Source: Eledone cirrhosa (taxonomy: Eukaryota). Taken from it: 64,000 nucleotides of DNA. How positions within the stretch are numbered: position 1 is the stretch's first letter; each line of letters begins with the position of its first letter. A program made the translations under genes and the position numbers. This document shows, piece by piece, positions 63,265 to 63,775 of the stretch. The notes beneath the pieces are model-generated. The model saw nothing but the letters and a program-made list of their open reading frames with translations, searched no databases and was not told where the DNA came from. The stretch spans positions 102,362,001 to 102,426,000 of the forward strand of contig OZ024743.1 in assembly GCA_964016885.1 (NCBI GenBank), read 5' to 3'.

Positions 63265-63775
63265 TAGTATTTCAGTATACATATATGGATGTACATCTTT
63301 AACTTAATTGTTTAAGCGTCAGTCATACAAAAGTGAGTTACAAACGAAACGAAATTTAATTTCGTTTCGTTATTTGTTTTTATCGTCTCCGTTGAACCGG
63401 TACTTACTCACACTCTATGCAAATTGGTCTGCCCACTACTAATTTTCATAGAAAAAGCTTATAACGATATGTGCTTTTACGATTCTCTAGAGAGGCCGGA
63501 AGATAGGTAAATATTGCTGATGAGTTGTAACAACAACGAAACTAGTTCAATATTCCTTGTCTGGCTTTCTGGAGAATAGAGGAAAGGTGTTTCCTCAAAA
63601 ACCAGTATGACTCTAAAAACCGGTTTGTCTGTGTGTTTACATACAGAATAGCTGGCCACTCACAGTAAAGTGACCAGTGAAAAAACTTGGTACATCTACA
63701 TATGTATACGTGTGTGTATTCATATACATACTAGTATTTCAGTATACATATATGGATGTACATCTTTAACTTAAT
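63265..63775 (+). mobile_element. Retrozyme-like family C: 467-nt monomer with ~44-nt terminal redundancy; HHR at 63510-63554
   Basis: tagtatttcagtatacatatatggatgtacatctttaacttaat occurs at both 63265 and 63732; permutation differs from the 41812 copy. Confidence 0.85.

Follow-up and report, generated by a model that had tools for sequence, protein, structure and literature searches.

A conserved octamer upstream of hammerhead ribozymes in non-autonomous Penelope-type repeats is predicted to form one arm of a hairpin and is probably part of an internal promoter

Newt satellite 2, the subject of work by Coats, Zhang and Epstein in 1994, reportedly carries an octamer upstream of its hammerhead ribozyme together with a PSE. 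Its promoter is described, second-hand, as being of the snRNA type and transcribed by Pol II (PMC2220036). Short tandem hammerhead repeats of animals are known as non-LTR retrozymes (PMC7229834), which derive from pseudo-LTRs (bioRxiv 10.64898/2026.07.22.740005), and those of a mussel were reported at 350–390 bp (PMC7229834; bioRxiv 10.64898/2026.07.22.740005). Penelope-like elements are marked by partial tandems, inverted 5'-truncated copies and (TA)n flanks (PMC8557442). In the pseudo-LTRs of these elements, the hammerheads have a helix III that is short and palindromic (PMC4209133), and a promoter from which the following tandem copy is transcribed also lies there (PMC6765202; PMC11167929). 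The transcription of animal retrozymes has been mapped in few cases, namely newt satellite 2, Schistosoma SM-alpha and Drosophila Penelope.

The window, that is, the whole stretch of 64,000 bases analysed here, is AT-rich, and simple repeats masked 20,513 of its bases, about one third. Fragments of reverse-transcriptase frames were also present. By its SINE-like sequences and its load of (TA)n, this animal DNA resembles that of an octopod. The Rfam scan of the window gave no RNA family at gathering score and no snRNA gene; matches of the mir-297 type, all of them under gathering score, were rejected as artefacts of (TA)n tracts. Three families of hammerhead insertions, referred to as C, D and E, carry the octamer under study. 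The family C insertion at 63267..63775 (+ strand) lies between (TA)n tracts and consists of a 467-nt unit (63270–63736) plus a 42-nt terminal direct repeat, self-BLAST equating 63267–63308 with 63734–63775. The head-to-tail joint of this unit (63736 to 63270, 467-nt period) was present in three of the four sequencing runs compared. In run X4, a 497-nt contig (record 9) closed on itself over the 467-nt unit, which tandem DNA and a circle would fit alike. A second C insertion is a partial tandem of 1.2 units (41812..42372, − strand, core at 42146) joined to an inverted and 5'-truncated copy (42371..42740, + strand, core at 42476) that begins 5 nt before its octamer variant. A mechanistic reason for inverted copies to begin at the octamer hairpin was considered and given up, since only one of the three inverted insertions does so. 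An older inverted C insertion (6252..6699, 86–93% identity) contained neither the octamer nor the hammerhead core; its 3' end is equivalent to 63380–63383 and is followed by (TA)n. Twelve contigs of the runs ended at 63383 and continued into (TA)n, near the ends of two window copies. In run X1 the family is highly repeated, with 1125 contigs on the C unit, depth not being equal to copy number.

Family D was represented by a dimer (32590..33431, − strand, period 453 nt, cores at 32775 and 33228) and family E by an insertion at 343..965 (− strand), made up of a 489-nt unit (343–831, core at 491), a repeated tail and an inverted piece (720–965). C and D aligned end to end at 67% identity, with a score of 225 versus 94 ± 8 for shuffled sequences. 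The score of D against E (133) was above all 300 shuffles (maximum 119), and that of C against E (121) was inside the shuffle range. On these alignments, C and D are homologous over their full length, with E as a probable, more distant relation. Inside the C, D and E units no frame of at least 100 aa was found, except simple-repeat frames at the edges, and no RT or GIY-YIG frame was attached to any of them; an autonomous partner was not found in the window. Retrozyme-type traits were seen in the type I hammerhead of each C, D or E unit spanning that region and in the head-to-tail arrangement of non-coding units. Penelope-type traits were the partial tandems, the inverted 5'-truncated insertions and the (TA)n targets (41812–42740, 6252–6699, 343–965, 63267–63775). 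Judged from their sequence, C, D and E are best taken as divergent subfamilies of one highly structured, non-autonomous Penelope-type repeat of 453–489 nt, a non-LTR retrozyme of the pseudo-LTR type that inserts in (TA)n tracts.

A descriptor scan placed the type I hammerhead of C, with a short palindromic helix III, at 63499..63570 (+ strand; CTGATGA at 63517, GAAA at 63538 and GUU ending at 63547). In C, all three cores scored 37.7 bits with the Rfam HH9 model (E 6e-6), under its gathering score of 52. All window copies are off canonical at the triplet or the core: the triplet of C is GUU, D has either GCA or one base too many, and in E the GAAA is replaced by AAAA. Covariation between C and D was seen in helices I and II, and in contigs of the public sequencing runs part of family C had GUC as its triplet and a helix II change that is compensatory. 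In our judgement, the hammerheads of C, D and E are real. By depth, the GUU triplet at 63547 occurred in about 92 of every 100 family C sequences of run X1; in X4 contigs GUC was found together with the compensatory helix II pair, and two C sublineages coexist. Penelope pseudo-LTRs hold an intron near the ribozyme. Splice-donor-like words, at approximate coordinates, were observed just 5' of the core in C (AG/GTAAAT, 63505–63512, + strand), D (G/GTATAC, 33237–33243, − strand) and E (CAG/GTAAGC, 505–512, − strand).

Other hammerheads of the window were assigned to family H (TATATATA helix III; 30750–31142 and 34050–34243), family I (12-bp helix II, GUA; 24991–25338) and family J (long helix II; 46457–46923 and near 49858). 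These three are mostly inverted pairs, and the exact octamer was upstream in none. Family G (24476–24962, 57864–58349, 50964–51243) was discarded as a hammerhead family because it has CTGAAGA but no hammerhead fold, and it overlaps a GIY-YIG-like frame on the opposite strand. A decayed Penelope-like remnant at 50964–51950 contained a GIY-YIG-like frame (51168–51500, + strand) ending in C-x2-C...N-K-R...C-x-H. After the frame come two short repeats that contain degenerate hammerhead-like words, and related pieces were located at 24476–24962 and 57864–58349. As a lead, this frame fell with Atlas clusters named GIY-YIG (0.95 and 0.91); it had no Pfam match and no homolog among longer proteins, and self-BLAST of the window gave no similarity of the remnant to C, D or E. 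The GIY-YIG-like remnant suggests that Penelope-type machinery was once present. A 159-aa frame at 23670–24149 (− strand), which we take to resemble the N-terminal part of a Penelope-like RT, had no Pfam or Atlas support. Long palindromic insertions, perfect or near-perfect and without identified ribozyme, were located at 45725–46117, 17394–17706, 18813–18993 and 47232–47345. Outside the window, an octamer-free search for the hammerhead pattern gave 39 matches, 7 in viral and 32 in metagenome contigs, of which one folds as a hammerhead. This type I hammerhead, well formed and having a similar loop II (701–732, − strand, metagenome contig L034), lies between CCCTAA-like repeats and an open frame, with no octamer within 200 nt, and the contig resembles a telomere-associated Penelope-like element. 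The octamer-plus-box pattern had 21 matches in viral contigs, none of them followed by a hammerhead core, and they were put down to chance.

The preliminary description of this DNA had placed the octamer ATGCAAAT 100, 88 and 92 nt before CUGAUGA in C, D and E, with a one-base variant in the 42-kb copy, and both observations were confirmed. On the ribozyme strand, the octamer starts at 63417 (+; 63417..63424) in C, 32863 (−; 32856–32863) in D and 583 (−; 576–583) in E, with the corresponding CTGATGA at 63517, 32775 and 491. The second D unit (octamer start 33316, 33309–33316; core 33228) repeats the distance of 88 nt. The 42-kb insertion presents the variant ATGCAAGT once per arm, at 42376 (+; 42376–42383) and additionally at 42246 (−; 42239–42246). 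In E, the octamer belongs to three tandem 33-bp units (560..658, − strand), overlooked at first, with starts at 649 (642–649), 616 (609–616, as ATGCAGAT) and 583, those at 649 and 583 being perfect. The whole window contained 15 octamers versus 6.5 ± 2.6 in shuffles, and since five of the 15 are inside C, D or E units, the other ten are near background. No exact octamer was found within 250 nt upstream of the ten other hammerhead-like cores (families F, H, I and J), several of these copies being truncated there. The octamer and its spacing are thus shared by all three families, as had been claimed, but not as three independent cases, because C and D are homologous end to end and E is a probable relative. 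As we read these alignments, the near-fixed distance between octamer and ribozyme is inherited.

The conservation statistics came from three subfamilies, effectively a single C-versus-D contrast, were post hoc and took the structure from the same alignment; with this reading, TATGCAAAT was the longest in-register word common to C, D and E, with 9 nt versus 7 for the ribozyme core. When E was shuffled, an in-register 9-mer appeared in 11 of 3000 trials and a 9-mer shared anywhere in 119 of 1000. When D was mutated uniformly to 58% identity, the octamer 9-mer survived in 51 of 5000 trials and any non-core 9-mer in 330 of 5000; at 65% identity some non-core 9-mer survived in 850 of 5000, and the range for the octamer 9-mer was 51–133 of 5000. 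Because TATGCAAAT is the best-kept word of C, D and E and there are three tandem copies in E, the octamer looks sequence-selected, beyond the general divergence of the units. In the contigs of family C no variant was listed over 63270–63411, the 142 nt of upstream flank. This flank being equally invariant, the octamer is no better kept than it among young C copies. Comparison across copies, which the preliminary description had proposed, therefore set the octamer above general divergence between the subfamilies but not above the flank among young copies.

The octamer is also the 5' arm of a predicted hairpin (H1), the 3' arm of which is the box TAATTTTCATA at 63440..63450 (+ strand) in C and at 32829–32839 and 33282–33292 (− strand) in the two D units. 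With 11 nt, this box is the longest exact block between C and D. It is separated from the octamer by 15 nt in C and 16 nt in D and is a near reverse complement of it, reading on the other strand TATGAAAATTA, one base off TATGCAAATTA, so that this strand contains a 7/8 octamer, ATGAAAAT. In both C and D, seven of the eight octamer bases were predicted to pair with a probability of 0.84–1.0 (0.87–1.0 in C). The mismatched base, the sole unpaired one of the octamer, is the C that makes it perfect. The box, which would be the PSE of an snRNA-type promoter, had been noticed earlier as a sequence following the octamer in all families. Its presence was substantiated for C and D, but E lacks it and pairs its octamer differently, and the E sequence tattttcac (528..536, − strand), taken for its counterpart, lies 39 nt after the octamer and is the 3' arm of another hairpin, H2. 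This second hairpin (63453..63478, + strand, in C), with a weak TATA-like word inside, recurs in all three families with a sequence that differs among them.

Each unit was predicted to be a chain of hairpins, with fold z values of −7 to −13 relative to shuffles and about two thirds of the bases paired, and the ribozyme strand folds 9–34 kcal/mol better than the antisense. Each unit being such a chain in the folding model, the pairing of octamer and box is not special by itself. Between C and D, 0 of 11 pairs in the octamer stem and 14 of 41 in the other stems differed on both sides (Fisher p 0.02). This contrast used 52 of the 61 RNAalifold pairs, nine doubtful ones having been dropped (six long-range and three mis-pairing the ribozyme core); with these restored, it was 0/11 versus 17/50 (p 0.018). 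The sequence thus seems to be held beyond pairing alone. An octamer-breaking change, 63423 A>G, had a depth of 2751.7 out of 175030 in run X1 (about 1.6 in 100) and of 4.27 out of 24.1 in run X5. It keeps a G-U pair, a G-U pair is replaced by A-U in the majority variant at 63426, and all three substitutions seen in the octamer stem preserve pairing. The word TGTTTACA at 63634–63641, exact in C and in its D counterparts, is the loop of a covarying hairpin; in C it is also the start of a 10/12 3'-box-like word, and presumably it can be read as a forkhead site as well.

Taken together, the sequence comparisons indicate that the octamer is kept upstream of the ribozyme probably as part of the unit's own promoter. 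That E retains it without the box, in three tandem copies, argues for this reading. Against it, the TATA-like words are weak, stand 57, 46 and 47 nt before the core in C, D and E, and lie inside a palindromic hairpin in an AT-rich genome. The stem substitutions, which all preserve pairing and one of which breaks the octamer and has spread, also speak against a promoter role, as does the equal invariance of the upstream flank among young C copies. Family F, unrelated to C, D and E, has three copies (25480–25914 and 61937–62377, − strand; 8121–8284, + strand; 70–73% identity) with a hammerhead-like core (CTGATGA...GAAAC...GTC) in which helix I has its partner shifted by 5 nt. Upstream of this core there are a CACCC-rich tract and TATAAATACCA, TATAAA 36–38 nt before it in all three copies and CCAAT at 90 nt in two of the three. 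This arrangement resembles that of a classical Pol II promoter within a pseudo-LTR and suggests that ordinary Pol II signals are usual upstream of such cores here. The earlier proposal that the units carry their own promoter is consequently plausible, given the conservation of the octamer, its triplication in E, the signals of family F and the precedent of Penelope pseudo-LTRs; the snRNA-type form in which it was made is not supported.

In its specific form, to which we would give an even chance, this promoter would be of the Pol II type, internal to the unit and derived from a Penelope pseudo-LTR, with the octamer as a POU-factor site overlaid on an RNA stem. A candidate POU factor at the octamer, and perhaps also at the inverted 7/8 site, would drive Pol II, with the weak TATA-like word 35–45 nt past the octamer and a start shortly before helix I. 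The octamer would do double duty, fixed as a DNA word while pairing in the RNA would hold its partner arm TAATTTTCATA. In a dimer such as that of D, the first promoter would read through both ribozymes and free a monomer with the promoter of the next unit. According to the model in the literature, this monomer would be circularised and then copied by the Penelope reverse transcriptase into AT-rich targets. From single 1.1-unit copies such as that at 63.3 kb, a full monomer could not be produced by that promoter.

As about two thirds of every unit is paired, the conservation could also be at RNA level. The octamer would then be only one arm of a conserved stem of RNA, or of single-stranded DNA, with a C-U mismatch and read by the Penelope protein or by a host RNA-binding protein; the POU match would be incidental and transcription would come from read-through or another site. 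The strong folding of the units, its bias to the ribozyme strand and the pairing of seven octamer bases in both C and D agree with this explanation. So does the propagation of the octamer-breaking variant, which keeps its G-U pair, as well as the change from G-U to A-U at 63426. Other conserved C/D blocks, moreover, are hairpin loops (TGTTTACA, TAACAA). However, E holds the octamer threefold without the TAATTTTCATA partner and pairs it otherwise, and the surviving word is exactly the canonical 8-mer, an outcome of about 1 in 100 under uniform divergence. We consider a purely structural role possible, if on the unlikely side.

The preliminary description had asked whether the promoter is of the snRNA type, as in newt satellite 2. 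In this reading the octamer would act with a PSE bound by SNAPc, and TAATTTTCATA would be the PSE of this lineage. The newt promoter provides a precedent (second-hand, PMC2220036), and no exact block shared by C and D is longer than the box, which stands at a fixed 15–16 nt from the octamer. Nevertheless, this label found no support, as the supposed PSE is accounted for as the inverted hairpin partner of the octamer, is missing in E and matches the human consensus no better than shuffles do. With the consensus of PMC5493778, C and D gave 8/12 and E 6/12, and 301, 295 and 500 of 500 shuffles, respectively, were as good; PSEs vary by lineage and that of the host may differ, so this mismatch counts weakly. 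By eye, the box fits five of the seven invariant letters of the Drosophila PSEA (ATTC-CAA; PMC1761439). At position 6 it has T, a place taken by C in each of the 101 insect Pol II PSEAs (PMC1761439). In the literature searched, no description of a mollusc PSE was found. Human consensus sequences for the other elements were not matched above shuffles either: the 3' box gave 10/12 in C at a conserved place (98 of 300 shuffles as good) and 9/12 in D and E, and the Staf site 11–12/18. In addition, the distance from box to core is 77 in C and 64 in D, 13 nt apart, although the start should be at a set distance from a PSE. Nor is the word octamer used in the paper on insect snRNA promoters (PMC1761439), which implies that the octamer is no marker of such promoters in those invertebrates. 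We therefore hold the snRNA-type assignment to be doubtful. Equally improbable, by analogy with the newt, is an invertebrate retrozyme lineage with a compact snRNA-type promoter in which the inverted partner of the octamer would itself be the PSE, the same 35-nt stretch serving as an Oct plus SNAPc promoter at the DNA level and forming a conserved hairpin in the circular RNA. If it were true, the capture of snRNA machinery by hammerhead repeats would be ancient or recurrent, and a probable mollusc repeat would be linked to the newt case, which the evidence does not favour.

Finally, neutral shared descent, with octamer and spacing as ancestral leftovers under no present selection, is very unlikely: the end-to-end identity of C and D (67%), the survival of some non-core 9-mer in 330 to 850 of 5000 trials and the 9-mers shared anywhere with shuffled E would allow it, but not so the rarity of in-register survival (11/3000) and of survival of the octamer word (51–133/5000), the triplication in E and an octamer stem without compensatory change.

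With regard to known systems, C, D and E are like metazoan non-LTR retrozymes in being non-coding, low-GC, head-to-tail type I hammerhead units, present as monomers or dimers and strongly self-paired (PMC7229834; bioRxiv 10.64898/2026.07.22.740005). Their length of 453–489 nt is at or just above the 150–450 bp of PMC7229834 and within the 51–972 bp of bioRxiv 10.64898/2026.07.22.740005. No occurrence of the word octamer came up in either source. No report of an octamer was found in the literature on retrozymes and pseudo-LTRs that the search covered, most subscription papers being outside it. With Penelope pseudo-LTRs they share the tandems, the truncated inversions, the (TA)n, the palindromic helix III and a recurrent 3' end (PMC8557442, PMC4209133, PMC11167929), and differ from them in that no RT or GIY-YIG frame is attached. 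Like the arrangement proposed here, the Schistosoma SM-alpha hammerhead SINE has a promoter and then a hammerhead, and needs a tandem in which the 5' unit transcribes the next (PMC6765202). It is, however, transcribed by Pol III (PMC6765202), whereas the search of the 64-kb window for tRNA genes found none. Newt satellite 2, compared by description alone, is likewise a hammerhead tandem repeat, with an internal promoter such as the one proposed here, but C, D and E have no recognisable PSE, the candidate box being the inverted partner of the octamer. Pol II promoters made of an octamer plus TATA are found, for example, at histone H2B and immunoglobulin genes. The units may resemble them in having the octamer some 35–45 nt upstream of a TATA-like word, which in C, D and E is weak and within a hairpin. 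The family provides a short candidate promoter that can be tested, and both a point variant and a triplication occur in it naturally. The class of element and the idea of an internal promoter were already known from these systems, and what may be new with respect to them is an octamer that doubles as the arm of a hairpin.
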